Origin: Tagaea sp.
GTDB taxonomy: Bacteria; Pseudomonadota; Alphaproteobacteria; CACIAM-22H2
Assembly (NCBI GenBank): GCA_965279525.1
Contig: CBDIIB010000005.1
Location: 1,024,001 to 1,088,000 of the forward strand
Direction of reading: 5' to 3'
DNA length: 64,000 bases
The translations under genes and the position numbers were made by a program. The notes beneath the pieces were generated by a model. It was not told the DNA's origin and did no database searches. It saw nothing but the letters and a program-made list of their open reading frames with translations. Positions 23,682 through 52,408 of the stretch are shown here, piece by piece (position 1 is the stretch's first letter; each line of letters starts with the position of its first letter).

Positions 23682-26600
23682 ATGCAGCCCTTTCGCGCGC
23701 GCTTGCTTGTTGCCGCATTGCTGGCCGGCACGGCCGCCGTTTCCGGCTGCCAGTCGGCGGGAAGCGGCACGGGCCTGTCGCGCGCGGCGGGCGAGAACCT
23801 GTCGGGCGATGCCTGCCGCGCCGAGCCGCGCCGGGGCCAGTCGCGCACCGATACGCCCGTTCTCGACATCACCTGCACGGGCAGTGCGCGCGTCGCGGGA
23901 TCGGTCGTCCAGCTCGGCGCGCAGCGCGGCGCCCCTGCCGACGGGCCGGCACGTCAGGCGCATTTCGCGCAAGCACTGGAATCAAGCGCCCCGATGCGGG
24001 CACTGGGTACGCGCGCCACGTGCGAAACGCCGCAATGGATCGCCACGCAAGCCGAACCCGAACTGCTGGTGGCGCGCTGCGCGCTGAAGGACGGCGGCTG
24101 GCCCTATCTGGTGGCGGGCCTCGCGGCGGGCGACGCGCTGGCGTTCGGCGAAGGCCAGCCGTCGGCTATTCCGGCCCTCGCCCATGCGATGCGCCAGGGG
24201 CTGCCGGGCACGGCCGCGCGCGACGTCGCCCCGCTTGTACCCGCCGAGCGCCAGGCGCTGACGGCGAAGCTCGAACAGGTTTTCGGCGGCGGCACGGCGC
24301 TCGCCGGCGATTCCGCCGGCGCCTATCAGGATTTCGTCGAGCTCGCGCGCCTCTACAACAGCACCGGCAACCACGCGGGCGCCGAGACGGCCTACCGGCG
24401 TGCACTCGAGCTGCAGACCGCGGCCCTCGGCGCCGAGCATGCCGGCATCGGCACGACGCTGACGCTGCTGGCGATGGAGATCTCGAACCAGGGGCGCGGC
24501 GAGGAAGCGGACGCGTTCTTCCGGCGCGCCGAAGCGCTCGTCATCAAGTCGCCCGATCCGGGCGAGTATCCGCGCTATCTGGGCTATCTGGGCATGCATG
24601 CGGCCAACCAGCGCCAGTTCGACCGGGCGCTGGCGGTGGCGCGCGACACGATCCAGCGCCGGCGCGACCTGATCGAGCGGCTCGGCGGCGGCATTCCCGC
24701 CGGGCTCGACGCGGGCGGCGGCGGGTCGATCTTCGGCGGGGCCGTCTTCCTGCAGGCGGAACTGGCGCACGCGCTGATGTTCGCGTCGGCGATGGCGCTG
24801 CGCACCGGCGACCTTGCCGGTGCGGAAGCCCATGCGCTCGAAGCGCGCCGCATCGTCGACCGCACGCCGGGCCTGCCGGCCTGGTGGCAGCCGCAGGCGA
24901 TCGGGCAACTTGGCGAGGTGCTCGCCGCGCGCGGCGATTTCCGCAATGCCGAACGGCTGCTCGCGTCGGCCGCCGAGTTGCGCTTGCGCGTGTTCGGCAC
25001 GGGCTGGCCGGTGGCGCAGGGGCTGATGGCGCTGGGCCGCGCGCAGTCGGCCGACGGCCGCTATCCGGAATCGATCGGGAACTATCGCGGCGCCTTGCGC
25101 CTCATCGTGGCCGAAACGCCGACGCGCAATCTCAATTTCGACCAGATCCGGCCCTTCCTGGAGGCAGGCGAAGCGCAAGGCCGCCGCGTGCCGGCCGAGG
25201 CCGCCGCCCTGCATGCCGAGATGTTCGCCGCCGTGCAGCTGATGCGCGAGGGCACGATGGGCCGTGCCGTCGCGCGCACCGCCCAGCGCGTGGCAGCCGA
25301 CGATCCGCGCATCGCGGCCCTGGTGCGCGACCATGGCGAGGCCACGCGCCGGCGCGACCGGCTGCAGGTCGACCTCGCCGGCGAACTGGGCCGGCCCAAT
25401 CAGTCGCGCGATGCCGCCCGCGTCGAGCGTCTGCGCGGCGAGCTGGGCCAGCAGAACCAGCGCATCGCCGCCCTCAATGCCGAGATCGAGACGGCCGCTC
25501 CCGGTTTCGAGCGGCTGGTGTCGCCCAAGCCCGTCGATCCGGCCACGCTCGCCAAGGCGCTAGGCCCGCGCGAGGCGTTGGCCGTCTATGCGGTCGGGCC
25601 GGACGGCGCGTTCGCGTTCCTCGTGCGCGCGTCGGGCGTCGTCGCGGTCAAGCTCGACACCGACGAAGTACAGCTCGCCGAGCAGGTCAAGGCGCTGCGC
25701 GGCGCTTTCGAGATCCGCGATCGCAACGTCGCCCCGTTCGACACCGCACTTTCCCACCGGCTCTACCGCACGCTCGTGGGTCCGCTCGAGGCCGAGCTTG
25801 CCGGCATCGAGCAGCTCTATGTCGTGGCCAACGGGGCACTCGCGAGCCTGCCCTTCGGCATCCTTGCCGCGGCACCGCCGGCGGCGGCTCCGGCCGGCGA
25901 CTATTCGCGCGTGGCGTGGCTTGCCCGCCGCGTGGCGATTTCCAACCCGCCGTCGGTGCGCGCGTTCCTCGAGCTGCGCGCACTCGCCCGCCGGCCGTCG
26001 GCGCCCGAGCCGCTGCTCGCGCTGGCCAATCCCGATTTCGCCGGCGGTGCGCCGGGCGGGCTTGGCGCCCTTGCCGGTGCGTGCCGCACCGAAGGGGCGG
26101 TACCTTCGGCGCTGATCCGGGCCCTTGCCCCGTTGCCCGAGACGGCCGACGAAGTGCGCCGCGTGGCCGCCACGCTCAATGCCGGCAGCGATTCGCTGCT
26201 GCTGGGGGCCAACGCCACGGCCGCCAACCTGCGTAGCCGCCAGCTCGACCGCTATCGCGTCGTCTACTTCGCCACGCACGGGCTGCTGCCGGGCGAGCTG
26301 CGCTGCCAGGCCCAGCCCGGCCTTGCGATGTCCGCACCGGCAACCGACGTGAGCGACCCGCTGGTCGACGGCCTGCTGGAAGCCGGCGAGATCGCGAGCC
26401 TGCGCCTGGACGCCGATCTCGTCGTGCTGTCGGCGTGCAATACGGCCGCGTCGGGCGAACGGCTGGGCGGGGAATCGCTGTCGGGCCTTGCCGAGGCGTT
26501 CTTCTTCGCAGGGGCCCGAAACCTGCTGGTGACGCACTGGCAGGTCCCCTCGCAGCAGACCGTGGCGCTGACCACGGGCATGTTCGAGCGGCTGGGCGGT

Positions 26601-26747
26601 GACCTCAAGCGCGGGATCGCGCCGGCCCTGCGCGCGGCACAGATGGCGCTGGCCGACGTGCCGGCCACCTCCCACCCGTTCTTCTGGGGGGCGTTCGTGC
26701 TGCAGGGCGACGGGGCGGCGGTGGCGCCGGCGGGCAACCCGAGCTAA
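23682..26747 (+). CDS. TPR-CHAT (caspase-like) lipoprotein
   Basis: Lipobox VSG-C, TPR-like helical repeats, CHAT motifs YFATHGLL, VVLSACNT, HPFFWGAFVLQG. Confidence 0.9.
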   Translation: MQPFRARLLVAALLAGTAAVSGCQSAGSGTGLSRAAGENLSGDACRAEPRRGQSRTDTPVLDITCTGSARVAGSVVQLGAQRGAPADGPARQAHFAQALESSAPMRALGTRATCETPQWIATQAEPELLVARCALKDGGWPYLVAGLAAGDALAFGEGQPSAIPALAHAMRQGLPGTAARDVAPLVPAERQALTAKLEQVFGGGTALAGDSAGAYQDFVELARLYNSTGNHAGAETAYRRALELQTAALGAEHAGIGTTLTLLAMEISNQGRGEEADAFFRRAEALVIKSPDPGEYPRYLGYLGMHAANQRQFDRALAVARDTIQRRRDLIERLGGGIPAGLDAGGGGSIFGGAVFLQAELAHALMFASAMALRTGDLAGAEAHALEARRIVDRTPGLPAWWQPQAIGQLGEVLAARGDFRNAERLLASAAELRLRVFGTGWPVAQGLMALGRAQSADGRYPESIGNYRGALRLIVAETPTRNLNFDQIRPFLEAGEAQGRRVPAEAAALHAEMFAAVQLMREGTMGRAVARTAQRVAADDPRIAALVRDHGEATRRRDRLQVDLAGELGRPNQSRDAARVERLRGELGQQNQRIAALNAEIETAAPGFERLVSPKPVDPATLAKALGPREALAVYAVGPDGAFAFLVRASGVVAVKLDTDEVQLAEQVKALRGAFEIRDRNVAPFDTALSHRLYRTLVGPLEAELAGIEQLYVVANGALASLPFGILAAAPPAAAPAGDYSRVAWLARRVAISNPPSVRAFLELRALARRPSAPEPLLALANPDFAGGAPGGLGALAGACRTEGAVPSALIRALAPLPETADEVRRVAATLNAGSDSLLLGANATAANLRSRQLDRYRVVYFATHGLLPGELRCQAQPGLAMSAPATDVSDPLVDGLLEAGEIASLRLDADLVVLSACNTAASGERLGGESLSGLAEAFFFAGARNLLVTHWQVPSQQTVALTTGMFERLGGDLKRGIAPALRAAQMALADVPATSHPFFWGAFVLQGDGAAVAPAGNPS

Positions 26748-27471: not shown

Positions 27472-27493
27472 AGATAAGGGCCGGGGGTTGACG

Positions 27494-29494
27494 ATGGAAG
27501 CAGCGGCCGTCGTCAAGCGCGTCGCCACGACGCTCGTCATCGCGGCCATCGCCGGGTCCGTCACGTTCGGCATCTTCTATTTCTTCCCGTTCCTGGGCAC
27601 GGCCGAACGCTGGACGCGCGATTTCCGCATCGCGAACATGTCGCCGCCCGAGCCGCAGCACCCCGACATCGTCGTGGCGGCGATCACGGAAGAAACACTG
27701 TCGTCGTTTCCCTACCGCTCGCCGGTCGACCGCAAGTTCCTTGCCGACACGGTGCGCGCGATCGCGGCCAAGGGCGCCAAGGCGATCCTGATCGACGTGC
27801 TCTTCGACCAGGAGACCGAGGAAGACAAGGACGACGAGCTTCGCGAGGCACTGGCGGAACTGACGATCCCGTTCTCGATCAGCTACTCGGATTCGCCCAC
27901 CTACGTGACCGACGAGCAGCTCGCCTATCTCGACGATTTCGTGAAGCCGGCCTGGCGCGGCCTTGCCGACATCGAGCCCGACAAGACCGACGGCATCATC
28001 CGCTTCGTGCCGCCGCCGCGCCACGTCAAGGACGGCACCTACGTGCCCAACGTCGCGGCCCGCGTGGCCCAGCTGCTGGGCGCGACGATCCCCGACAAGC
28101 AGAGCATCATCGCCTGGCGCGGCGAGCCCGACAGCGCCACGCAGCCCTTCCGCGAATTCCCGGCGCACGCCGTGCGCGTGCTGCCGGAAGCGTGGTTCAA
28201 GAACAAGATCGTGCTGGTGGGTGCCAACCTGTCGCTGACCGACCGCTATCGCACGCCGTTCTCGATCGGCCGCGACGTGGGCGACAACCGCATGGCCGGG
28301 ATCGTGATCCAGGCGCACATCCTGGCGCAGATGCTGGAGATGCGCGTGGCGCCCGAGGAGCGCGCCTTCGTGCCGCATCTCGTGACGCTGGCGCTGCTCG
28401 CGTTGATCGGTGCGGCACTCGGCAGCACCGGCGTGCCGATCTCGGTGCGGCTGGGCGGCGCCACGCTCGCGGTCGTGCTGCTGTGGGCGGCGGGCTGGTA
28501 CCTGTTCAAGGCCGACCATCCCTTCGTGCCGCTGGTCGAGGCGATGACCGGCGGGCGCAACCTGCTTGTCCCGCTGATCGAGCCGATCGTGGCGCTGGGC
28601 ATGGCGCTGTGGCTGTCCGACGCATGGTCGGGGCGCGAAGAACGCCAGCAGAAGAAGTTCATCCAGGGCGTGTTCAGCAAATACGTGTCGGCCGAGCTGC
28701 TGAACGAGATCGTCAAGGATCCCAAGAAGCTCGATCTTTCGGCGAGCCGCCGGCCGATGTCGCTGATCTTCACCGACGTGCAGGGCTTCACGACGCTGTC
28801 GGAAAAGCTCGAGGCCGCCCATCTCGCCGACGTGCTCAACCGCTATCTCGACGGCGGCTGCCGCGAGATCTGGAAGTACGGCGGCACGATCAACCAGTTC
28901 ACCGGCGACGCGATCTACGCGATGTTCAACGCGCCGCGCGAGCAGCCCGACCACGCGAAGCTGGCGCTGAAAGCCGCGCTCGACATCGACACGTTCTCCG
29001 AAGCGTTCCGCGCGGGCGAGCGCGAGAAGGGCGTGGACATGGGCATGACGCGCATCGGCGTGCACACGGCCGAGGCGAACGTCGGAAATTTCGGTTCGCT
29101 CGACCGTTACGAGTATAAAGCGCTTGGCGATGCGGTGAACACGGCCGCCCGGCTCGAAGGCCTCAACAAGTACTTCGGTACACGCATCCTGATCACGCAG
29201 CAGACGCGCGACGCGAGCCCCGAGATCCCGTGCCGCAAGGTGGGCGGCGTGATCGTCAAGGGCAAGAGCGAGCCCATCCATGTCTTCGAGCCGCTGACCG
29301 GCGCGCGCGCAAACGACGAGAACACGAAGCTCTATCTCGCCGCGTTCGAACTCCTGAAGGCGAAGGACCCGGCGGCACTCGCCGCGTTCGAGGACCTCGC
29401 GCAGCGCTACCCCGACGACGCGCTCGCCGAATACCATCTCGACCGGCTGCGCGAAGGCGAGACCGGCGAGGTCTTCGCGATGGCGGAGAAGTAA
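27494..29494 (+). CDS. CHASE2-domain membrane class III nucleotidyl cyclase
   Basis: CHASE2 (DIVVAAITEETL..P.DR, IDVLF, KNKIVLVG, D.YRTP), TM helices, cyclase motifs FTDVQGFT, GDA, RIGVH, GDAVNTAARLEG, VKGK. Confidence 0.92.
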   Translation: MEAAAVVKRVATTLVIAAIAGSVTFGIFYFFPFLGTAERWTRDFRIANMSPPEPQHPDIVVAAITEETLSSFPYRSPVDRKFLADTVRAIAAKGAKAILIDVLFDQETEEDKDDELREALAELTIPFSISYSDSPTYVTDEQLAYLDDFVKPAWRGLADIEPDKTDGIIRFVPPPRHVKDGTYVPNVAARVAQLLGATIPDKQSIIAWRGEPDSATQPFREFPAHAVRVLPEAWFKNKIVLVGANLSLTDRYRTPFSIGRDVGDNRMAGIVIQAHILAQMLEMRVAPEERAFVPHLVTLALLALIGAALGSTGVPISVRLGGATLAVVLLWAAGWYLFKADHPFVPLVEAMTGGRNLLVPLIEPIVALGMALWLSDAWSGREERQQKKFIQGVFSKYVSAELLNEIVKDPKKLDLSASRRPMSLIFTDVQGFTTLSEKLEAAHLADVLNRYLDGGCREIWKYGGTINQFTGDAIYAMFNAPREQPDHAKLALKAALDIDTFSEAFRAGEREKGVDMGMTRIGVHTAEANVGNFGSLDRYEYKALGDAVNTAARLEGLNKYFGTRILITQQTRDASPEIPCRKVGGVIVKGKSEPIHVFEPLTGARANDENTKLYLAAFELLKAKDPAALAAFEDLAQRYPDDALAEYHLDRLREGETGEVFAMAEK

Positions 29495-33142: not shown

Positions 33143-33155
33143 CGCACCCGACCGT

Positions 33156-33188
33156 TGGCGCCCACATCCGGGCTGGAACAGCTGACGC
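33156..33188 (+). repeat. 33-bp direct repeat, copy 2
   Basis: Identical to 32371-32403. Confidence 0.9.
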
Positions 33189-33235
33189 TTCTCGCGGTAT
33201 CGTCGCCGCCAAGATTCCGTTCTGGGGAGGAACGC

Positions 33236-34804
33236 ATGTTCGCACGCATCATCGCAACGGCGGCAATCGCCGCCGTGGCCTTCGTTTCCGTTTCGGCGGC
33301 ACAAGAACAGCCGCGCCGCGGGGGCGAATTCATCTTCGCGGTCGGCGGCGAGCCGGACACGACCGACTGCCATGCGGCGACGAACTTCGCGGTCGTCCAC
33401 CACCTGGCGCCGCACTATTCGACGCTGGTGAAATTCAACCCGCCGAAATATCCCGAGATCGTCGGCGACGTGGCCAAGGAATGGACCGTCTCGCCCGACG
33501 GCAAGACCTATACGTTCAAGCTCGTCCAGCCGATCAAGTTCCATGACGGCTCGGCGCTGACCTCGGCCGACGTCAAGGCGAGCTTCGATCGCATCAAGAC
33601 GCCGGTCACCGGTGCGCGCTCGGCGCGGCGCGACCATTTCGCCGACGTGGCTTCGGTCGAAGCCCCGGCACCCGACACGGTGGTGTTCAGGCTCAACAAT
33701 CCGAACCCGGCGTTCATGACCTACCTCGCCGCGCCCTTCAACTGCATCTACTCGGCAGCGAAGCTGGCGCAGGACCCGCGCTATCCCGAGAAGCAGGTGA
33801 TGGGCTCGGGCCCGTTCGTGTTCGGCGAGCGCGTTCCCGGCTCGCACTGGGCCGGCAAGCGCTTCGACGGCTATTTCCGTGCCGGATTGCCGCATCTCGA
33901 TGGCTTCCGCGCCACGACGATGAGCGGTGCGGCCATGCTCAACGCCGTGCAGGGCGGCCAGGTGATGGCCGAGTTCCGCGGCATCAGCCCGGCCGAGAAG
34001 GCGCGCGTCGCCGGCCCCAAGGTGACCTTCCAGGAAGCGCCGTGGCTGTCGGGCCTGATCCTGTCGTTCAACATCGAGCAGAAGCCGTTCGACGACGTGC
34101 GCGTGCGCCGGGCGCTGAGCCTCGCGCTCGACCGGTTCGGCTCGGCCCCGTCGCTGGCACGCGTGTCGCAGGTGATGTCGACCGGCTCGCTGCTGCGCCC
34201 GGGCTATGCCTATGCGCCGACCGAAGCCGAGCTGGCGACATATCCCGGCATGGGCCGCGACATGGCGCGCAACCGGGCCGAGGCGCGCAAGCTGCTTGCC
34301 GAGGCGGGCCAGTCGAACCTCAAATTCGAGATGATCTCGATGTCGCTGCCGCCCTTCCCGACCGTCGGCGTGTGGCTGATCGACCAATGGCGCCAGATCG
34401 GCGTGACTGTCGAGCAGCGCCAGGCCGAGCGTGCCACCTATTTCGGCGCGCGCACGTCGGGGGCGTTCCAGGTGATGCTCGATTTCACGACCGAGTTCGC
34501 CGACGAGCCGAACTTCCAGCTGCGCCGCTTCATCTCGTTCGACCGCGTGCCGGGATTCAACGTCAGCCGCCATCTCGACCGGCGCCTCGACGAGATCTTC
34601 GACCGGCAGGAGCGCGAGACCGACTTCAACAAGCGCAAGGCGCTGGTGCGCGACTTCCAGATCCAGCTGATGGACATGGCCTACACGGTGCCGCTGTTCT
34701 GGTTCACGCGCATCATCCCGCTCGCGTCCAACGTGCGCGGCTGGGACATCACGCCCTCGCACCTGCTCGGCCAGGACCTCGCGGGCGTGTGGCTGGCGCC
34801 CTGA
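33236..34804 (+). CDS. ABC transporter substrate-binding protein, family 5 (Dpp/Opp-like), orphan
   Basis: Signal peptide; SPDGKTYTFKL..KFHDGS.LTSADVK; GSGPF; PFDDVRVRRAL. Confidence 0.92.
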   Translation: MFARIIATAAIAAVAFVSVSAAQEQPRRGGEFIFAVGGEPDTTDCHAATNFAVVHHLAPHYSTLVKFNPPKYPEIVGDVAKEWTVSPDGKTYTFKLVQPIKFHDGSALTSADVKASFDRIKTPVTGARSARRDHFADVASVEAPAPDTVVFRLNNPNPAFMTYLAAPFNCIYSAAKLAQDPRYPEKQVMGSGPFVFGERVPGSHWAGKRFDGYFRAGLPHLDGFRATTMSGAAMLNAVQGGQVMAEFRGISPAEKARVAGPKVTFQEAPWLSGLILSFNIEQKPFDDVRVRRALSLALDRFGSAPSLARVSQVMSTGSLLRPGYAYAPTEAELATYPGMGRDMARNRAEARKLLAEAGQSNLKFEMISMSLPPFPTVGVWLIDQWRQIGVTVEQRQAERATYFGARTSGAFQVMLDFTTEFADEPNFQLRRFISFDRVPGFNVSRHLDRRLDEIFDRQERETDFNKRKALVRDFQIQLMDMAYTVPLFWFTRIIPLASNVRGWDITPSHLLGQDLAGVWLAP

Positions 34805-34806
34805 CG

Positions 34807-34853
34807 CCTCACCCTAGCCCTCTCCCCTTGCGGGAGAGGGCTAGGGTGAGGGG
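34807..34853. repeat. BoxC/REP-like palindromic repeat (second copy)
   Basis: CCTCACCCTAGCCCTCTCCC-CTTGC-GGGAGAGGGCTAGGGTGAGG perfect hairpin; same family as 29690-29780. Confidence 0.85.
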
Positions 34854-34889
34854 ATCGCCATCTTCGATCCCGCCACGGTCGGCCCCTAT

Positions 34890-37298
34890 TCAGTCGAGGC
34901 GAATCATTTCCACTGCTTTCCCCAGACGTTCAGCCGTTTTGTCAAGGTTGGCTAGAATGCCACCGACGTCTTTTGAGGCTTCAAGATAAATTGTTTTGTT
35001 CACGTACTTGGTTCCAGGTCCAATTGCCCACCCATCATTTTCAAGTATCCCCACCGCGGATGCCAGTCGATCTGGCCACGTTTTCTCGACTTTTGACCAA
35101 TCTGCCTCGGGATTTAATTGATTGTGGAACGTCAGAAGTACCGAGTTACTTTTTATGCTCCCCTTCAGAGCACAGAGCCGCCCCGGTCTTCCAATACGAG
35201 TGAAAGTTGCACCATCGTCGCTTGATAGATAGCTATTGTCGAATGCACGAGCAAATAGCTCTTCGGCGCAAATATCCGGGGTTATTGAAGTGAGCTTTCC
35301 TCCCAATGCGCGGTCGATTTGCGAGAGGATTGCCCCAAAAGTCCGGACAGTTATTCTAAGCTGTGATTCTGGATTGGTAGAGCTTCGAATCAACCAACGA
35401 AGACGCGCAGCTGCAGATTTCCATTTGACCTTTGGATCTTGCCTGACACCGCTAGAAATCAAACCCAACCAATCTAAAGACTTGCTTCCGCCACTTGGCG
35501 GGGGCTTACCAGTCGCGCAAAAGTACGCCGTCATTCCAATTCCATATGAGTCAACAAGTGCTGATCTTGCTGCTTCTGCGTTTCCATCAGGAAGCTGCTC
35601 GGGTGCGTAATATGCCGCCTCGTCAGTACTACCGGAAATGCTCTCGCCTTGGGCATTCGAATGCCAAGACATGTCATAGTTCAATAACGTAACACTATGC
35701 CGGGAACCTCCTTCGAATGCTTCACATGCTTCTTCATCCCAATAAAATCTGGGAACCATAATGTTTGAAGGTCTCACATCTCTATGCAACACGCTTTCAG
35801 GCAGCGCGTGGGAGTTCTCAATATGATCGCATACGTTGCAGAGAACTTTTATGCCGTCGAGCCAAAAGTCAAATTTACTATCCAGCGCGATTTGCGCCAA
35901 ATTGGCTCCGTCGACAAACTTCATAATCATGCATGATGGAATCTCAACTGCATCCACTATTTCCGCCGTACCGGGGACTTTAGCTTTTGTTAGATAACGT
36001 AGAGATTGTACACCCCGCCGGAAGCTCTCAAGTTGAGGGCCTTTTTCCAAATTCTCGATCTTAATGATCTTTAGTGCGTAGTCATTGCTCTCCGAATCCG
36101 AGATTCGCCAGATTGAAGAGAAGGGGTTGCTGGATATCTTTTCCCTAACCACATATCCAAGAAATACGTTCGATGGAGCCTCTGTTGTGACATGCCAAGA
36201 CATATAAACCGCTCTAGAGTACTTCTTTAGAAATTCTTTATACTCGGCTGAATCAGTATTTCCAGAATTGCGGGCCAATATATCTCTGGCGTATCCCGCA
36301 AGTTCACCTCGAAGTTGGTCGTCATTGTCTAGTTCAATAAGTTCTTTCGGCGTGCGGATCTTTGTGCTTCTAGCGACGGACCCTACAACTGCTGGCGCGG
36401 CAGAATCGCGAGATACAAAGTTTTTGAGACTTTCGAGAATCTCAACTATTGCCGTAGTGTGATCAATTGTGTCGTCTGAAGCTCTGGTTGGCTGATAATT
36501 TATAACCTGAAGCTGTGTTTTTGCCGCCCATTTAGCGGTAGTCCCATCATTCCTGCTCGTAATCCAAAAATGTTGGTCGAGATCAACATGACTTCTTGTC
36601 ATTTCCTCAAGGAAGCCACCAACCGCTAAGTCGTCGGCTGAAATCCCGAGAAAAACAATGGTCAAATCTTTGAGAATGTAGTCGATAAATTGCCGGTACT
36701 GGCTATTTGAAAGGAGATGACTCAAATCACCTTTAGTAAACACCCATGAGTCAGCGTTTTCATGAACGCCATGGAGATTTGCGATGAACGGCTTTCTCTG
36801 AGAAACCCGATGAATATACGGACCCGCATCTTTACCGGAAAACTCCATCGAATCTTCGTGCGAACGAATAAGGCGATGGGAACGACGGGCCATTCCATCG
36901 ATATTCAAAGTCAGAACACTCTTAACGCCGTCAAGCTTCCAAAGCTCTTCATACACTCTAGGTGGATCAACACGTTCGGCCTTCTCAAACACCTCTCGAA
37001 TCGCCGATCGATATTTTGCAGCCCCGAGAACATCCCGCAATGTCTCGAAGGAATCCCAAAGAGACGCATCCGATCCAAGACGCTCTAATCTGTCTTCAAT
37101 CTCATCTACTTTTGACGCTTCAGCAGTCAACAATTCTTGCTTAGCTTCATCGGCTAAAATGTCACGAAGTTCTGACCATGAAGGCAAGCCTGCTGGCTGG
37201 CTAATCCCCGCGCCAATCCAAAACGCAATATCCTTTGTCCGCTCTGCGTACCTGCGGCCCAAACGAAGAAAGCTACCTTGATTTGGATTGAAAAGCAT
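34890..37298 (-). CDS. SIR2-like (NADase-type) domain fused to a Ser/Thr kinase-fold domain; putative anti-phage protein on an AT-rich island
   Basis: SIR2: WIGAGISQPAGLPSW, LTLNID, NLHG, FLGISADD. Kinase: YALK, HRDVRPSNIM, YYAPEQ, DSYGIG. Markedly lower GC than the flanks. Confidence 0.8.
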   Translation of the reverse strand: MLFNPNQGSFLRLGRRYAERTKDIAFWIGAGISQPAGLPSWSELRDILADEAKQELLTAEASKVDEIEDRLERLGSDASLWDSFETLRDVLGAAKYRSAIREVFEKAERVDPPRVYEELWKLDGVKSVLTLNIDGMARRSHRLIRSHEDSMEFSGKDAGPYIHRVSQRKPFIANLHGVHENADSWVFTKGDLSHLLSNSQYRQFIDYILKDLTIVFLGISADDLAVGGFLEEMTRSHVDLDQHFWITSRNDGTTAKWAAKTQLQVINYQPTRASDDTIDHTTAIVEILESLKNFVSRDSAAPAVVGSVARSTKIRTPKELIELDNDDQLRGELAGYARDILARNSGNTDSAEYKEFLKKYSRAVYMSWHVTTEAPSNVFLGYVVREKISSNPFSSIWRISDSESNDYALKIIKIENLEKGPQLESFRRGVQSLRYLTKAKVPGTAEIVDAVEIPSCMIMKFVDGANLAQIALDSKFDFWLDGIKVLCNVCDHIENSHALPESVLHRDVRPSNIMVPRFYWDEEACEAFEGGSRHSVTLLNYDMSWHSNAQGESISGSTDEAAYYAPEQLPDGNAEAARSALVDSYGIGMTAYFCATGKPPPSGGSKSLDWLGLISSGVRQDPKVKWKSAAARLRWLIRSSTNPESQLRITVRTFGAILSQIDRALGGKLTSITPDICAEELFARAFDNSYLSSDDGATFTRIGRPGRLCALKGSIKSNSVLLTFHNQLNPEADWSKVEKTWPDRLASAVGILENDGWAIGPGTKYVNKTIYLEASKDVGGILANLDKTAERLGKAVEMIRLD

Positions 37299-37417
37299 TC
37301 CAGCACCCTTGAGATTTAATATTTTCTGGTTGTGTATTTTTTCAATTATAATTTAGTATGCATATCTCGCCGAATGTCAAATATTGGTCGACGATTCAAT
37401 TTGGACTTGTGCGGGCA

Positions 37418-38527
37418 CTACTCAATTGCCGCCACCGAACCCGCGACCGTCAGCTTCTCGACCGACGGCCAGTCCCATTCGATGCCGAGGCCCGGCGTGG
37501 TCGCCGGTGCCACGTGGCCGTCGGCGACGTGCACGGGGCTGGGGGCGACGGCGTCGAGCTGCGGGATGTATTCGAGCCAGGCCGAGTTGGGCACGGCGCA
37601 CACGAGTGCGAGGTGCAGCTCCATCAGGAAGTGCGGGGCGACGGCCACGTTGCAGCACTCGGCCATGTGCGCGACCTTCAGCCACGGCGTGATGCCGCCG
37701 ATGCGCGCCACGTCCACCTGAACGATGCCGCAGGCGTTGCGCTTCAGGTAGTCCGCGAACTGGCCGGGCGAATAGAGCGACTCGCCCACCGCGATCGGGA
37801 TCTGCGTGCCGGCCTGCAGGCGCACGTGGCCGTCCACGTCGTCGGCGGGCAGCGGCTCCTCGAACCAGTCGAGATCGAGATCGGCCCACAGCAGGGCGCG
37901 GCGCAGCGCTTCGGCCGCCGTGAAGCGCTGGTTGGCATCGACCATCAGGCAGAAGCCGGGCCCCACGGCCGCGCGCACGGCCGCAAGGCGCCTGCGGTCT
38001 TCGGCACCCGAAGGCTTGCCGACCTTGAGCTTGGCGCCCGCGAAGCCCTGTTCGCGCGCCTTCAGCGTCTCGTCGACGAGCTGTTCGGGGGGATGGTGCA
38101 GCCAGCCACCCTCGGTCGTGTAGACCGGGATGCGCGTCTTGGCCCCGCCGGCGGCCAAGTGCAGCGGCAGCTTCGCGCGCCGGCAGCGCAGGTCCCACAA
38201 GGCCGTGTCGATCGCCGCCATCGCCAGCGACGTGATGGCGCCCACCGTGGTCGCGTGCGTGTGGAAGAGCATGCCGTTCCAGATGCCCTCGATGGCGTCC
38301 GCGTCCTTGCCCAGCAGATACGGCCCCAGACAGTCGCGCAGCATCGCCATCACGGCCGAGCCGCCCGTGCCGATCGTGTAGCTGTAGCCCGTGCCCACGG
38401 CGCCGTCGGCGTCCCAGATCCGCACCATCGGCGTTTCCTGGCGCACGAAGGATTGGATGGCGTCTGTCCTTACGACCGGAGGTACGAGGTCGACCTGGCG
38501 GATTTCGATCCGGACGATGCGCGACAT
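37418..38527 (-). CDS. Mandelate racemase/muconate lactonizing enzyme family (enolase superfamily) protein
   Basis: AIDTALWDL, KLKVG, LMVDANQ, WFEEP, IAVGES, QVDVARIGGIT, APH motifs. Confidence 0.92.
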   Translation of the reverse strand: MSRIVRIEIRQVDLVPPVVRTDAIQSFVRQETPMVRIWDADGAVGTGYSYTIGTGGSAVMAMLRDCLGPYLLGKDADAIEGIWNGMLFHTHATTVGAITSLAMAAIDTALWDLRCRRAKLPLHLAAGGAKTRIPVYTTEGGWLHHPPEQLVDETLKAREQGFAGAKLKVGKPSGAEDRRRLAAVRAAVGPGFCLMVDANQRFTAAEALRRALLWADLDLDWFEEPLPADDVDGHVRLQAGTQIPIAVGESLYSPGQFADYLKRNACGIVQVDVARIGGITPWLKVAHMAECCNVAVAPHFLMELHLALVCAVPNSAWLEYIPQLDAVAPSPVHVADGHVAPATTPGLGIEWDWPSVEKLTVAGSVAAIE

Positions 38528-48532: not shown

Positions 48533-49248
48533 GGCGCCTGCATTACGACGAAATTGAACGTCGTGCGCGGAACGAAACCGAGCCGCTCGTAGAGCGTGCG
48601 CGCCGAAGGGTTGTCGGCATAGAGATGCAGGAACGGCCGCTCGCCGCGCGCGGCAATGCTTGCCATCAGCGATTTGACCAGTGCGAGCGCATGGCCCTTG
48701 CCGCGAAAGTCGGGATGGACGCACACCGCGCTTATCTCGGTGAAGCCCGCGGGCCGCATGCGTTCGCCCGCCATCGCCGCAAGCCGTGCACCGGCGCGGA
48801 TGCCGATATAGCGGCCAAGCTCGTGCGTGCGCGAAAAGAACGGACCGGGCTTGGTCAGCGCGGTCAGCTCCAGCATTTCAGGCACGTCGGCGGGCCCGAG
48901 CGTTTGGGGCGCGAAGGCGGGATCGGCGGCGGGCAAGTCGGTCGCGATCATCTGCAGGATCCGCGCGGCGGCCCGGATCTCGAGCCCGTCGACCGGGGCG
49001 GGATCGGTCCCGTCGGGATAGAGCAGACCGACCGGGCCCGTACCCGCGACGTCGCGCAGTTCGCGACGTGCTGCCGGCGTTTCCTCGAGGAACGCCGCGA
49101 ACGGCGAGATCTCGGCGGGATAGCGCAGCACGGTTTTCCCGCGCAGTGCCAGATGGCGGTGGCCGGTCTTGAGCGCGGCCAGGATCGGCTGGTCGAGTGC
49201 GGCGGTCTGTTCGGGAGAAAGGCGGATCATGCGGTCGGAAAATACCAT
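48529..49248 (-). CDS. GNAT acetyltransferase (FR47-like)
   Basis: TKPGPF, AMAGER, EISAVCVHPDFRGKG, LYERLGF. Confidence 0.9.
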   Translation of the reverse strand: MVFSDRMIRLSPEQTAALDQPILAALKTGHRHLALRGKTVLRYPAEISPFAAFLEETPAARRELRDVAGTGPVGLLYPDGTDPAPVDGLEIRAAARILQMIATDLPAADPAFAPQTLGPADVPEMLELTALTKPGPFFSRTHELGRYIGIRAGARLAAMAGERMRPAGFTEISAVCVHPDFRGKGHALALVKSLMASIAARGERPFLHLYADNPSARTLYERLGFVPRTTFNFVVMQAP

Positions 49249-49281
49249 GCACGACCGGGCAGGCCAGTTCGAAATGAAAGA

Positions 49282-50415
49282 CTACAATCGTGGCGCGTGG
49301 ACCGCCATCCGGTCTGCGAAGCCCTTCAATTCGAATTCGCCAAGGGCGCGCAGCGGTCCCTCGACGAGGGCAGCGAAGTCGCCCGACATCACGATGGGCT
49401 CTTCGAGGGCGCCGCACAGCTTCTCGATGCGCGCGAGCAGGTTGACGTCGCGCCCGATGATCGTGAAGTCGAGCCGGTCGCCCGCACCGATGTTTCCATA
49501 CGCGACCTCGCCGACATGCAGCGCCATGCCCACGCGTCCGCCGCCGGCATCGTCGGACGCCAGCGCGGCTTTCGCCGCCGCAAGTGCGGCGGCACAGGCG
49601 GCCTTCGCATCGCGCGCGTCGGTGATCGGAAAGATGGCGAGCACGCCGTCGCCCATGAATTTCAGCACTTCGCCGCCCTCGGCCACGATGGCCGGTACGA
49701 CGCGGTCGAGATAGGCGTTGATCGCGGCGACCGTCGCCTCGGGTGTGCCGGCGTTGGCGAGCACCGTGAAGCCGCGCAGGTCGCTGACGAACAGGGCCGC
49801 GCGGATGCGCTTCACGTCGCCGCGCCTTATGGCGCCCTTGAGGATGCGCTCGGCGGGCTCCGAGCCCACATAGGCCTTCAGGATTTCCGACCACATGCGG
49901 TGGACGGCCTGGATGTTCATCACCGCGGCGAGGGTCGGGCGGATCGCGCGCAGCAGGGCGAGGTGTGCGGGCGAGAAACCACCCGGCTCGCGCGTGGAAT
50001 AGGAAATGCCGTTCAGCGGCTCGTTGCGGAACTTGAGCGGCATCATCAGGTAGTGGGTGTGGCCATCGTCGCGAAGTCCCGGCAGCAGGTCGTATTTCTC
50101 GATTTCCGGATCGTCGAGGTAGCGCTCGAACTCGGCGCCGGTTTCCTGCAGCACGTCGACGGAGTAGATTTTCGTCGCGTGCGTGATGACGGGATCGTCG
50201 AACGTGGCGCGGCGCAGGCGCATGTCGCTGCCCTGCTCCCACACGCGCATGGCGCCCACGAAGCGCGGATGCAGCGTCTCGACGATCGAGGCGACCCGCG
50301 CGACCGGCACGCCTTCGGCCAGCAGCTTGCCGGCAAGCTGCTCGATCAGCACGCCCATGTCGGGAAGATGGGCCGCTTCTTCGAGCAGCCAGTCGATGAC
50401 GCGGTTGGCATCCAT
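49282..50415 (-). CDS. Class III adenylate cyclase (soluble, N-terminal sensor domain)
   Basis: SDLRGFT, VLKFMGDG, GNIG..RLDFTIIGRDVNLLARIE. Confidence 0.9.
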   Translation of the reverse strand: MDANRVIDWLLEEAAHLPDMGVLIEQLAGKLLAEGVPVARVASIVETLHPRFVGAMRVWEQGSDMRLRRATFDDPVITHATKIYSVDVLQETGAEFERYLDDPEIEKYDLLPGLRDDGHTHYLMMPLKFRNEPLNGISYSTREPGGFSPAHLALLRAIRPTLAAVMNIQAVHRMWSEILKAYVGSEPAERILKGAIRRGDVKRIRAALFVSDLRGFTVLANAGTPEATVAAINAYLDRVVPAIVAEGGEVLKFMGDGVLAIFPITDARDAKAACAAALAAAKAALASDDAGGGRVGMALHVGEVAYGNIGAGDRLDFTIIGRDVNLLARIEKLCGALEEPIVMSGDFAALVEGPLRALGEFELKGFADRMAVHAPRL

Positions 50416-50417
50416 GT

Positions 50418-51323
50418 TCAGCGCCCTTTGAGCCAGAGGACGAGACCCGGCAGGCCGGCAGCGATCTGCGTCAGCCCGAAGGCGACCGATAGCGCGAGGG
50501 CTTCGCCCGCCGGCACGCCGACCAGCGCAAATCCTGCCACGGCTGCCCCTTCGCGCACACCCCAGCCGGCGAGCGAGATCGGCAGCGTGGTCAAGAGCAC
50601 GATGGGCGGGACAAGGACCAGGCACGCCGCGAAGCCGGCCGCGATGCCCAATGCCTGCGCCAGCAGCCACATCGTCGCGATCACGCCCAGATGCACGGCC
50701 ACCGCCAGCGCCACGATGTCGGGCCGCAAAAGCGCCGCGCGCAGGTCGCCGGCCAGCGCGGTGGCGAAACTCACGATCCGGCCCGGCGCGAACCGGCTCA
50801 GCAGGTGGCGCTCGGCGAGCGCCAGCAGGCCGAGGCCGGACAGCGTTCCGGCCACGAGCGCGCCGAGGAGGATGAGCAGGGCGGGATCGGGTGCCACTGT
50901 CGCCGTCAGCGGCAGGCACAGGGCGATGATCGCGACCAGCACGACGAGTGCCGTACCCCGGTCGACCAGCACGCCGCTGGCGGCGCGCGTGGCCGGCAGG
51001 CCGCGGCGTGCCGCAAGGGCGGCGCGCACGGCATCCCCGCCGATGGCCGAGGGCAGCGTCTGGCTGAAGAACTGGCCGATCAGCGCAAGCTCGATGGCAT
51101 CGCGCACGCCAAGGGGTGCCTCGATGGCCTGCTGGATGCGTGCCCAGCGCACGGCCGCGACGAGAAGCTGGGCCGCAAAAGCGCCGAGTGCTGCCAGCGT
51201 CCAGCCCGCATCGGCGGCACCAAGGCGTGCGCCAAGCGGTGCAAGATCGACGCGCGCGGCAAGCCAGGCGATCAGGCCAAGCGAGACCGCGAGCTTCAGG
51301 GAAAAGACGAGGAGCTTTTTCAA
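50418..51323 (-). CDS. Lysylphosphatidylglycerol synthase TM-domain (flippase-like) protein
   Basis: RW, FFSQTLPSAIGGDAVR, DR, LPISLAGWGVRE. Confidence 0.87.
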   Translation of the reverse strand: MKKLLVFSLKLAVSLGLIAWLAARVDLAPLGARLGAADAGWTLAALGAFAAQLLVAAVRWARIQQAIEAPLGVRDAIELALIGQFFSQTLPSAIGGDAVRAALAARRGLPATRAASGVLVDRGTALVVLVAIIALCLPLTATVAPDPALLILLGALVAGTLSGLGLLALAERHLLSRFAPGRIVSFATALAGDLRAALLRPDIVALAVAVHLGVIATMWLLAQALGIAAGFAACLVLVPPIVLLTTLPISLAGWGVREGAAVAGFALVGVPAGEALALSVAFGLTQIAAGLPGLVLWLKGR

Positions 51324-51427
51324 GGGGGCGACCGGTCCCGAACATGGCGGCTGGCGGGACCGGACGCAAGACTTGACGAAAGCGGCCGCCCGACGGACTC
51401 ATAGGCAAAGCGGAGTACCCACGAAGC

Positions 51428-52408
51428 ATGTTCCGAGCACTCCTACTCGAACGGCAGGACGGCAAGTTCAGCGCGAAGATCGCGTCACTCGAGGATTCGG
51501 CGCTGCCCGAAGGCGACGTGACGGTCGCGGTCGCGTATTCGTCGCTGAATTACAAGGACGGCCTTGCCATCGCCGACAAGGGCAAGATCGTGCGCAGCTT
51601 CCCGATGGTGCCGGGCGTCGATTGGGCCGGCACGGTCGAAAGCTCGACGTCGACGTCGTTCAAGCCCGGCGACCGCGTGATCCTGACCGGCTGGGGCGTG
51701 GGCGAAAACTACTGGGGCGGCATGGCCGAGAAGGCGCGCGCCAAGGCCGAATGGCTCGTCAAGCTGCCGGCCGGCACCGACGAGAAATGGGCCATGTCGA
51801 TGGGCACGGCCGGCCTGACCGCGATGATGTGCGTGCATGCGCTCGAAGCCAACGGCATGCGACGCGAGCGCGAGGTGCTGGTGACCGGGGCTGCCGGCGG
51901 CGTGGGGTCCATCGCCGTGGCACTGCTCGCCAAGCTTGGCCACAAGGTCGTGGCCTCCACCGGGCGGCGCGAACTCGACGCCTATCTCAAATCGCTGGGT
52001 GCCACGTCGGTCATCGACCGCGCCGAACTTTCCAGACCCGGCCGGCCGCTCGAAAGCGAGCGCTGGGGCGCCGCGATCGACACGGTCGGCTCGACGACGC
52101 TGGCCGGCGTGCTCGCCGGCATGGCGCGGCGCGGTGCCGTCGCCGCATGCGGACTTGCCGGCGGGGCGGACCTTCCGACCACGGTGATGCCGTTCATCCT
52201 GCGCGGCGTGCGCCTGATCGGCATCGATTCGTCGCAATGCCCGATGGCCGAGCGCGAGGCCGCCTGGCGCAAGCTCGCAGCCTTGCTGCCTGACGGCCTG
52301 CCCGGCGAAGCGCTCGCCGTGTGCGGCCTCAACGACCTGCGCCACCGCGCCGACGACATCGTCGCCGGCCGGATCAAGGGCCGCACGATCGTGGACGTGA
52401 AGAAGTAG
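51428..52408 (+). CDS. acuI: Acryloyl-CoA reductase AcuI/YhdH (MDR family)
   Basis: YSSLNYKDGLA, GTAGLTAM, VTGAAGGVGS, TVMPFILRGV.L.GIDS. Confidence 0.88.
   Translation: MFRALLLERQDGKFSAKIASLEDSALPEGDVTVAVAYSSLNYKDGLAIADKGKIVRSFPMVPGVDWAGTVESSTSTSFKPGDRVILTGWGVGENYWGGMAEKARAKAEWLVKLPAGTDEKWAMSMGTAGLTAMMCVHALEANGMRREREVLVTGAAGGVGSIAVALLAKLGHKVVASTGRRELDAYLKSLGATSVIDRAELSRPGRPLESERWGAAIDTVGSTTLAGVLAGMARRGAVAACGLAGGADLPTTVMPFILRGVRLIGIDSSQCPMAEREAAWRKLAALLPDGLPGEALAVCGLNDLRHRADDIVAGRIKGRTIVDVKK

Follow-up and report, generated by a model that had tools for sequence, protein, structure and literature searches.

A SIR2 NADase-type domain fused to a kinase fold and a predicted chaperone-like domain: a candidate one-protein anti-phage defence gene in a Tagaea genome

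We analyzed a stretch of 64,000 nucleotides from Tagaea sp. (assembly GCA_965279525.1, contig CBDIIB010000005.1, positions 1,024,001 to 1,088,000 of the forward strand; hereafter the window), in which a single gene of 802 codons occupies an AT-rich block of about 2.5 kb. An earlier inspection of the letters alone, called here the sequence-only reading, had proposed that this gene joins a SIR2 NADase to a degenerate kinase fold and might represent a new anti-phage system. Our results describe the gene product as a member of a rare and widespread family without a name, with a fixed SIR2, kinase-like and chaperone-like architecture. On balance, the evidence leans towards a self-contained, one-protein anti-phage defence of the abortive-infection type. 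This reading is based on the invariant active site of the SIR2 domain, whose closest solved relatives are immune or nicotinamide adenine dinucleotide (NAD)-processing SIR2_2 proteins, on the fixed architecture, the lack of a conserved neighbour and the horizontal transfer of the gene, as well as on its defence neighbourhood, its insertion hotspot and a targeted change at the ATP site of the kinase fold. The gene and its parts are located in the window as follows (aa, amino acids; ORF, open reading frame).

34890..37298, minus strand: SIR2 / kinase-like / chaperone-like protein of 802 aa with an ATG start (ORF list, translation, Pfam, AlphaFold2)
34890-34892, minus strand: stop codon of the 802-aa gene
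36414..37298, minus strand: SIR2_2 (SIRim) NADase-type domain, residues 1-295 (Pfam, invariant residues, profile and Foldseek searches)
36177..36413, minus strand: linker, residues 296-374, an extended stretch followed by the helices H317-321, H326-343 and H351-367 (DSSP on the model)
35304..36176, minus strand: Hanks-type protein-kinase fold with an altered ATP site, residues 375-665 (Pfam, PDB profile, Foldseek, motif tables)
34893..35303, minus strand: C-terminal alpha/beta domain resembling type III secretion chaperones and YbjN, residues 666-802 (domain model, Foldseek, VIA-align)

Judged by its residues, the N-terminal domain carries the complete predicted active site of immune NAD+ glycohydrolases. 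Pfam assigns SIR2_2 (PF13289) to residues 127-266 with 44 bits (cut-off 24.5), and the motifs GAGISQ, TLNID, NLHG and GISADD begin at positions 29, 130, 174 and 218, respectively. Among the active-site residues, which comprise GAGxS (G29, G31, S33), N132, D134, H176 and D223, five (G29, G31, N132, H176, D223) are identical in 111/111 aligned family members and the other two (S33, D134) in 110/111. The SIR2-like motifs described as intact in the sequence-only reading are thus all present, in the order given there, with catalytic residues that are invariant or nearly so. There is no Cys in residues 1-300 and therefore no zinc module; the SIR2_2 subfamily as a whole is described in the accessible part of PMC12700824 as lacking the zinc module needed by canonical deacetylases and as consisting mainly of NAD glycohydrolases, often activated by multimerisation. 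Using a profile of 23 sequences, the best solved match to the domain was human FAM118B (E 7.5e-15), followed by a streptococcal USG protein, ThsA, KomC and DSR2, and Foldseek on the structural model likewise lists KomC, ThsA and DSR2. The Asn and His of the domain align with those of FAM118B, and the PDB entry names “DSR2 H171A” and “KomC(H146N)” mark the equivalent His as a site of inactivating mutations. A homodimer prediction with two copies of the SIR2 domain (scores 0.00 and 0.01 against a mark of 0.42) bears on neither side.

The middle part of the protein was recognised as Pkinase (PF00069) at residues 390-651, with 41.8 bits against a cut-off of 31.7, and is nearest to PknB-type kinases (PDB profile E 1e-30; Foldseek match to PknB with E 5e-10 and a template modelling (TM) score to the target of 0.72). 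Its motifs are SSNPFSS at 389, YALK at 407, FRRGV at 426, HRDVRPSN at 505, LNYDMSW at 539, YYAPEQ at 563 and VDSYGIG at 582. The protein keeps K410, H505-R506-D507, N512, D542, E567, D583 and R648, and the YALK Lys, HRD..PSN, APE and D.YG.G elements reported as retained are all found in the translation. K410 (beta3 Lys), D507 (HRD) and E567 (APE) occur in 111/111 sequences and N512 (catalytic-loop Asn) in 110/111; HRD, the alphaF Asp and the alphaH-alphaI Arg are kept in all or nearly all of them. Replaced in the Tagaea protein are the alphaC Glu (G429), the last Gly of the Gly-rich loop (S394) and the DFG Asp (N540). The alphaC assignment follows from a profile-based alignment with PknB of S. 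aureus (4eqm), in which FRRGV falls on FEREV; across the family this position holds Gly in 110/111 sequences and Ser in the remaining one. Further family-wide departures are Arg in place of the catalytic-loop Lys (104/111) and Asp at the third DFG position (111/111). In the preceding linker R330 is invariant, and L333, A337, Y353, F356, Y360 and W368 are conserved in at least 90% of the sequences.

With respect to the Gly loop and the DFG motif, the family divides into 65 sequences with both G..G and Asp, 40 with neither (including the Tagaea protein) and six with Asp and without the loop. The 40 altered sequences form one monophyletic clade with a support of 100 in a tree built without those columns, and therefore reflect one change. 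Only 4/802 positions (394, 538, 540 and 541) are fixed differently between the clades, and all four belong to the Gly loop or the DFG motif, which suggests a specific, targeted change at the ATP/Mg site of an otherwise constrained domain and not decay. From their motifs, members with the DFG Asp and the G..G loop look ATP-competent, and in the larger clade the kinase fold may still autophosphorylate, whereas in the clade of the Tagaea protein it is most likely a non-phosphorylating ligand-binding or scaffold module, i.e. a pseudokinase. The description as a degenerate kinase consequently holds for this protein, in which the losses of the alphaC Glu, the Gly loop and DFG are real, but only the alphaC loss extends to the whole family; the Gly loop and the DFG Asp have been lost in a single clade (40/111), and the other 71 sequences keep the DFG Asp.

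The AlphaFold2 model of the whole chain, computed with 111 sequences, reached a predicted local distance difference test (pLDDT) value of 92.6 and a predicted TM score (pTM) of 0.92, with only the activation loop (547-555) below 50; from the pTM value the domains are therefore predicted to stand in a fixed mutual arrangement. Modelled alone, the 137-aa C-terminal domain, to which the sequence-only reading had given no identity, has a pLDDT of 92.1. Foldseek placed ExsC first for this domain (E 5.6e-4, TM 0.45), followed by SchA, YbjN, SicP and CesT, and VIA-align gave Spa15 (Z 7.4-7.6, 117-119 residues aligned), SycN (7.1) and DR_1245 (6.7-7.4), with Arp2/3 p34 tying with Spa15 (Z 7.7-8.0). 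At the sequence level, Pfam had no match for the domain, and the ESM Atlas, searched with residues 663-802, yielded nothing usable. Based on these models, a type III secretion chaperone/YbjN-like fold is a lead of middling strength and not proof. Peptide-binding chaperones of this type occur in other NAD-centred conflict systems, as noted in the accessible part of PMC9503650.

The three-part architecture is shared by a family that is rare and phylogenetically scattered. A word-indexed protein search returned 142 relatives, the best of them 49% identical; 119 of the 120 matches listed carry PF13289 together with PF00069. Most relatives have 770-820 aa, with about 790 aa being typical. At E<=1e-30, an exhaustive search of 1.84 billion cluster representatives found 401 clusters; at least 304 species had a relative when each was scanned with one genome, and the 54 loci that we studied span 12 phyla. 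Nevertheless rare, a relative was present in only 1/400 other evenly drawn genomes of the class to which the window belongs, and each of 26 host genomes checked holds one copy. In 5/26 of these genomes (G050, G051, G055, G063, G064) the copy has one internal stop or is split into two frames, either because a costly gene is truly decaying or because the long-read assemblies contain errors; some of these broken copies come from metagenome bins built from long reads, whose frameshifts could stem from faulty sequencing. No relatives with a swapped effector turned up: of 57 matches to residues 300-802, all with at least 653 aa carry SIR2, and the four without it are short (466-583 aa) fragments. 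Evidence for split forms was likewise not obtained, as only five proteins below 441 aa match residues 1-300, and three of these lie on contigs no longer than about 1-2 kb. Two longer forms (P0041, P0155) were set aside, their N-terminal extensions being read as mis-called starts. In a single case, the 1085-aa protein P0185, residues 1-296 form an extension resembling helical (HEAT-like) repeats before the SIR2 domain. A metagenome scan with the single protein gave nothing; with the alignment of its clade, the scan recovered four contigs with the Asn state of the DFG position, two of which (L133, L134) hold part of the gene, and in all four the gene has a lower guanine-plus-cytosine (GC) content than its flank.

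The 802-aa gene was acquired horizontally and moves alone. The ORF list and a sliding-window GC analysis agree on an 802-aa ORF within an AT-rich block, in line with the sequence-only reading: the 2.5-kb block has 45-49% GC (500-nt windows from 35000 to 37249, 0.446-0.492) between flanks of 0.63-0.72 on either side. In six genomes of the same genus (G012, G019, G007, G011, G016 and G014) the two flanks lie only 24-128 bp apart, and since they nearly adjoin, the low-GC block is a true insertion. The earlier description as a single-gene island is thereby substantiated, with one gene in a low-GC insert and empty sites in the congeners. The features of the insertion are the following.

34884..37424, no strand assigned: inserted segment of about 2.54 kb, absent from congeners (junction BLAST against empty sites, junction read-out)
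37299..37417, minus strand: AT-rich upstream region carried by the insert (sequence)
34854..34883, plus strand: left copy of an imperfect 30-nt direct repeat, resembling the 3' end of the MR_MLE gene
37425..37454, plus strand: right copy of this repeat, within what is now the 3' end of the MR_MLE gene (comparison with the empty site of G019)
34807..34851, no strand assigned: perfect palindrome with 20-nt arms and a 5-nt loop, similar to repetitive extragenic palindromes (REP-like), adjoining the insertion point (repeat search)

By Pfam, the left neighbour is a family-5 solute-binding protein (33155-34804, plus strand) and the right neighbour an enolase-superfamily MR_MLE enzyme (37418-38527, minus strand), beyond which TRAP transporter genes are located. 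The insert lies just past the palindrome, replaces the last codons of the upstream MR_MLE gene and provides a new stop codon there. The direct repeat copies bounding it are identical at 21/30 positions, a value reached in 6/2000 mononucleotide shuffles, and no integrase, transposase or tRNA was found in or beside the island. The REP-like palindrome has many near-identical copies on both strands of this genome and in congeners, often paired about 90 bp apart. In the congener G010, the same intergenic site (window 34805-37417) holds another low-GC cargo of 1.15 kb (L091 1625-2773, G010:C6), encoding a 280-aa DUF3800 protein that matches the PADLOC candidate PDC-M04A (E 4e-18); judged by these two cargos, the site acts as a small hotspot for accessory genes. 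Searched with the Tagaea protein, the gene was found in 0/20 same-genus genomes and in none of four other genera of the family. Foreign composition, empty congener sites and this patchy distribution together bear out the horizontal acquisition. Upstream of the gene, a promoter scan marked a promoter-like site (TTGAAA-16-AATATT, 37345-37318); with two such sites against 2.8 expected, the region is not above chance. Public read sets containing the stretch are four DNA runs of one study, with no RNA run among those listed.

A foreign composition was observed for nearly the entire family. The homologue lies more than 3 GC points below its flanks in 50/54 loci and more than 8 points in 40/54 (mean -12.2). 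Control blocks of 2.4 kb, taken 150 kb away in 26 of the same genomes, showed a mean difference of -0.2 and fell below -3 in 1/26 and below -8 in 0/26. There is no conserved neighbour, the largest neighbour cluster, UvrB, being present in 4/54 loci. For defence genes, we scanned with PADLOC the called genes up to four positions away from the homologue in the 54 loci, 341 in all, and counted matches at E<=1e-20 to bona fide defence families, excluding generic ABC, UvrD, RecD, cyclase and kinase matches after comparison with Pfam. In this curated set, 15/54 loci had defence genes (26 genes), compared with 2/26 control positions treated by the same procedure (186 genes, five counted; CRISPR-Cas I-E and PDC-S01/S27), with Fisher test values of p=0.045 for loci and p=0.02 for genes. 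The association with defence genes is suggestive, not robust. The following neighbourhoods were recorded.

L014 7235-16781; L041 421-8153: type I restriction-modification around the homologue, which lies between hsdR and hsdM
L047 59-15849: type III methylase and Druantia DruH/DruE, with the homologue between them
L063: Wadjet JetABC adjoining the homologue
L026: HEC-01 adjoining the homologue
L025: DUF262 protein near the homologue
L019, L028, L046, L054: methyl-directed restriction enzymes near the homologue
L042: type IIG enzyme near the homologue
L015: LmuA-like protein near the homologue
L044; L051: PDC-S02 and PDC-S01, respectively, near the homologue
L066: type III methylase near the homologue

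L014 is an Ignavibacteria genome, which also has a SoFic-like gene, and L041 a Bacteroidota genome; their hsdR genes cluster together and may derive from a single ancestral arrangement. L047 is a Pirellula bin with a type III Druantia, in which the frame of the homologue is shortened to 561 aa. Matches to PADLOC “mad3” near homologues were discarded, as Pfam identifies them as ABC-transporter ATPases or UvrA and similar matches occur in control loci; partial matches resembling PycC, GajB, RecD or PD-T4-6 were left uncounted in real and control loci alike. Conjugative-element genes stand beside three loci (TrwC in L020 and L040, TrwB in L050). In three Rhizobiaceae genomes (L052, L056, L064) the homologue is directly downstream of uvrB, and in L062, an unclassified proteobacterial bin, uvrB is the second gene downstream of the homologue. 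These uvrB-adjacent copies may represent a shared insertion site or vertical inheritance.

For a one-protein defence, we envisage the following course. In the resting state, the kinase-like and C-terminal domains would keep the SIR2 domain inactive. During infection, the C-terminal domain could capture a phage protein or peptide; alternatively, a change in nucleotide or phosphorylation state might be read by the kinase fold. Either trigger would rearrange or oligomerise the protein, as in ThsA, DSR2 and KomC, and the SIR2 domain would then hydrolyse cellular NAD+, so that the infected cell stops growing before phage release.

Several observations weigh against such a defence role. The trigger, the autoinhibition, the oligomerisation and the sensing by the kinase fold are all steps that we infer, and the fold matches of the C-terminal domain (Z at most 8.0, TM 0.45) are middling and may reflect only a common arrangement. 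The neighbours of the gene in the window are of metabolic, housekeeping type, and full-length relatives were found neither among 72,556 plasmid records nor among 50,697 phage records. No known defence gene is nearby in 39/54 loci; many flanks are housekeeping, with UvrB, ribonucleotide reductase, GlnE or tRNA synthetases. All 49/54 loci with a readable motif belong to the DFG-Asp clade and the other five are unreadable, leaving this window, with its metabolic neighbours, as the only annotated context of the Tagaea clade. Without curation, the defence loci number 17/54 against 4/26 (p=0.18), and for the 26 loci with their own control the counts are 4 and 2 (p=0.67). Enrichment of homologues in defence islands, a check proposed with the sequence-only reading, is modest in the full comparison (15/54 against 2/26) and is lost in this matched subset. 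As to a conserved housekeeping context, which the same reading had named as contrary evidence, the flanks are often housekeeping and no neighbour is conserved.

These points give some room to other explanations. A selfish or stress-linked growth-arrest module unrelated to phage, i.e. an NAD-depleting toxin checked in cis that persists by mobility or serves competition or dormancy, would fit the foreign composition seen almost everywhere, the conjugative-element genes beside three loci, the weak excess of defence neighbours and the disrupted copies in 5/26 genomes, as expected of a costly gene. However, there is no conserved antitoxin-like partner and Pfam detects no domain for secretion or delivery; in three loci the gene lies within operons of restriction-modification or Druantia systems, and some disrupted copies may be the sequencing errors of long-read bins mentioned above; we regard such a module as unlikely. 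Distinctly unlikely, in our view, is a conflict protein that acts without NAD+ depletion, in which SIR2 would ADP-ribosylate a phage protein, a host protein or the attached kinase domain, or else produce a signal derived from NAD, with the kinase as executor or co-executor as in Stk2 and PD-T4-6. An ADP-ribosyltransferase role of sirtuin domains in conflicts is considered in the accessible part of PMC9503650, the kinase part scores against the PD-T4-6, MADS mad6 and MkoA models (E 1e-15 to 1e-17), the DFG Asp is kept in 71/111 sequences (65 of them also with the G..G loop), and K410, D507 and N512 persist even in the altered clade. On the other side, the alphaC Glu is gone in 111/111 sequences and NAD+ hydrolysis is the activity described for the nearest characterised SIR2_2 relatives. 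Moreover, the SIR2 domain is the constant enzymatic element, because its catalytic residues are invariant whereas the Tagaea clade lost the Mg-binding Asp and the Gly loop of the kinase.

The metabolic or DNA-repair genes that flank the window gene and many other loci would suit a housekeeping regulatory enzyme, such as a protein deacylase or an NAD sensor coupled to Ser/Thr-kinase signalling. This is highly improbable and already close to refuted by the distribution (0/20 congeners, 1/400 other genomes of the class); furthermore, the insertion is clean with intact empty sites, the GC content averages 12 points below that of the hosts, and the protein lacks Cys in residues 1-300 while the deacetylase zinc module is missing from SIR2_2 proteins (accessible part of PMC12700824). 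Equally remote is an inactive relic of a past transfer in this genome: the promoter-like site is not above chance, but the frame stays open over all 802 codons and none of the family-invariant residues is missing. Since the nearest relative is only 49% identical and frame and invariant residues are kept, the lineage appears to have been long under constraint.

A one-protein anti-phage defence thus remains our preferred reading. A further, joint proposal, which we put forward tentatively and consider rather doubtful, is that the kinase fold acts as a genuine switch regulating an immune NADase, which would make it a bacterial equivalent of the RNase L and IRE1 design. By this analogy, ATP binding or autophosphorylation in the ancestral clade would license SIR2 after the chaperone-like domain has captured an unfolded or new phage polypeptide. 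Gly394Ser, Val538Leu, Asp540Asn and Phe541Tyr would then form a single coordinated change to a pseudokinase in the Tagaea clade, which might read a different nucleotide or none, possibly as an escape from phage kinases or ATP-site inhibitors. If the family protects against phage, it would provide a new sensor type for NAD+-depletion immunity. It would also offer a natural two-state contrast between a kinase-competent and a pseudokinase clade, four ATP-site positions apart, which would help to show how kinase folds are reused as switches.

Besides that, two further observations were made in the window. A 1021-aa TPR-CHAT protease-like protein (23682-26747, plus strand) is followed within less than 1 kb by a CHASE2-adenylate/guanylate cyclase encoded on the same strand (27488-29494, plus strand), and this pairing may be functional. 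A 1222-aa ATG-started ORF (48625-52293, plus strand) has no Pfam (E<=0.01) and no PADLOC match; it could be spurious in DNA of such high GC content, and a long ORF on the opposite strand overlaps it.

Compared with named systems, the protein found no match in PADLOC-DB 2.0.0 (2023; without Kongming models) beyond the domain level, where the kinase part matches MkoA, mad6 and PD-T4-6 and the SIR2 part LmuA, Dsr1 and ThsA. PADLOC on the nine flanking gene products (E<=1e-5) gave only a generic cyclase-domain match in a CHASE2 protein, and NCBIfam returned nothing near a cut-off (Dsr1 with 11.7 bits against 1400). A SIR2-protein-kinase fusion is not described in the full-text literature searched, although an earlier mention in subscription papers or supplements beyond our reach is possible, and the word “kinase” does not occur in the accessible main text of the SIRim preprint. 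The proposal that this is not a named system agrees with all three sources. SIR2 effectors that deplete NAD+ have known sensors of the SLOG, helical-repeat, HerA, Argonaute and STAND types; for a protein-kinase fold as the putative, covalently attached regulator of SIR2, no described case was found in the literature searched.

Among the SIR2 systems, Thoeris ThsA (PDB 6lhx, 8bto) resembles the Tagaea protein as a SIR2_2 NADase effector (profile E 1e-11) and is activated by helical filament assembly, according to the title of PDB 8bto. In ThsA, a SLOG or Macro domain senses the signal that the separate TIR protein ThsB makes. In contrast, Pfam finds no SLOG or Macro domain in the Tagaea protein, there is no conserved partner, and the ThsA model matches residues 21-51 only. 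Kongming KomC (PDB 8zsf, 9v0g, 9v12) is likewise a SIR2 NADase (Foldseek E 5e-9, profile E 2.4e-11); it is a stand-alone SIR2 protein of 264-278 aa acting, by the PDB titles, with KomB and a dITP (deoxyinosine triphosphate) signal, whereas the protein studied here is a three-domain fusion without conserved partners. DSR2 (PDB 8k98, 8wyb, 8wyc) shares the design of a single polypeptide with an N-terminal SIR2_2 NADase domain (profile E 8e-8, with a fold match too) and a C-terminal sensor, and according to the accessible part of PMC11087589 it recognises the phage tail tube protein and depletes NAD+. In DSR2, which has about 1000 aa, sensing falls to a long helical region in place of a kinase fold and a 137-aa alpha/beta domain. 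The Dsr1 model of PADLOC covers only residues 21-245 (E 2.5e-7) of a 1227-position profile, short of a full-length match. For Lamassu, the LmuA model matches the SIR2 part only (22-299); no neighbour in the window has a PADLOC match that could supply LmuB, and no neighbour is conserved in the 54 loci.

PD-T4-6, Stk2, MADS mad6 and BREX PglW share a Hanks-type kinase fold in a defence setting, and the matches to the MkoA, mad6 and PD-T4-6 models are limited to residues 357-667. PD-T4-6, Stk2, mad6 and PglW are without a SIR2 domain, while the Tagaea protein is without the alphaC Glu, the Gly loop and the DFG Asp. In RNase L and IRE1, a kinase or pseudokinase fold binds nucleotide, dimerises and switches on a fused effector nuclease. 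With these the likeness is one of logic only: homology does not extend past the kinase fold, the Tagaea protein has a predicted NADase as its effector, and its domains follow the opposite order. Human FAM118B (PDB 9r3e, 9r0p), matching residues 17-285, is described in the accessible part of PMC12700824 as a filament-forming, NAD-processing member of SIR2_2. This vertebrate protein has neither the kinase nor the chaperone-like domain, and it is through the enzyme domain that the family is linked to the human SIR2_2 proteins FAM118A and FAM118B, its closest solved relatives.

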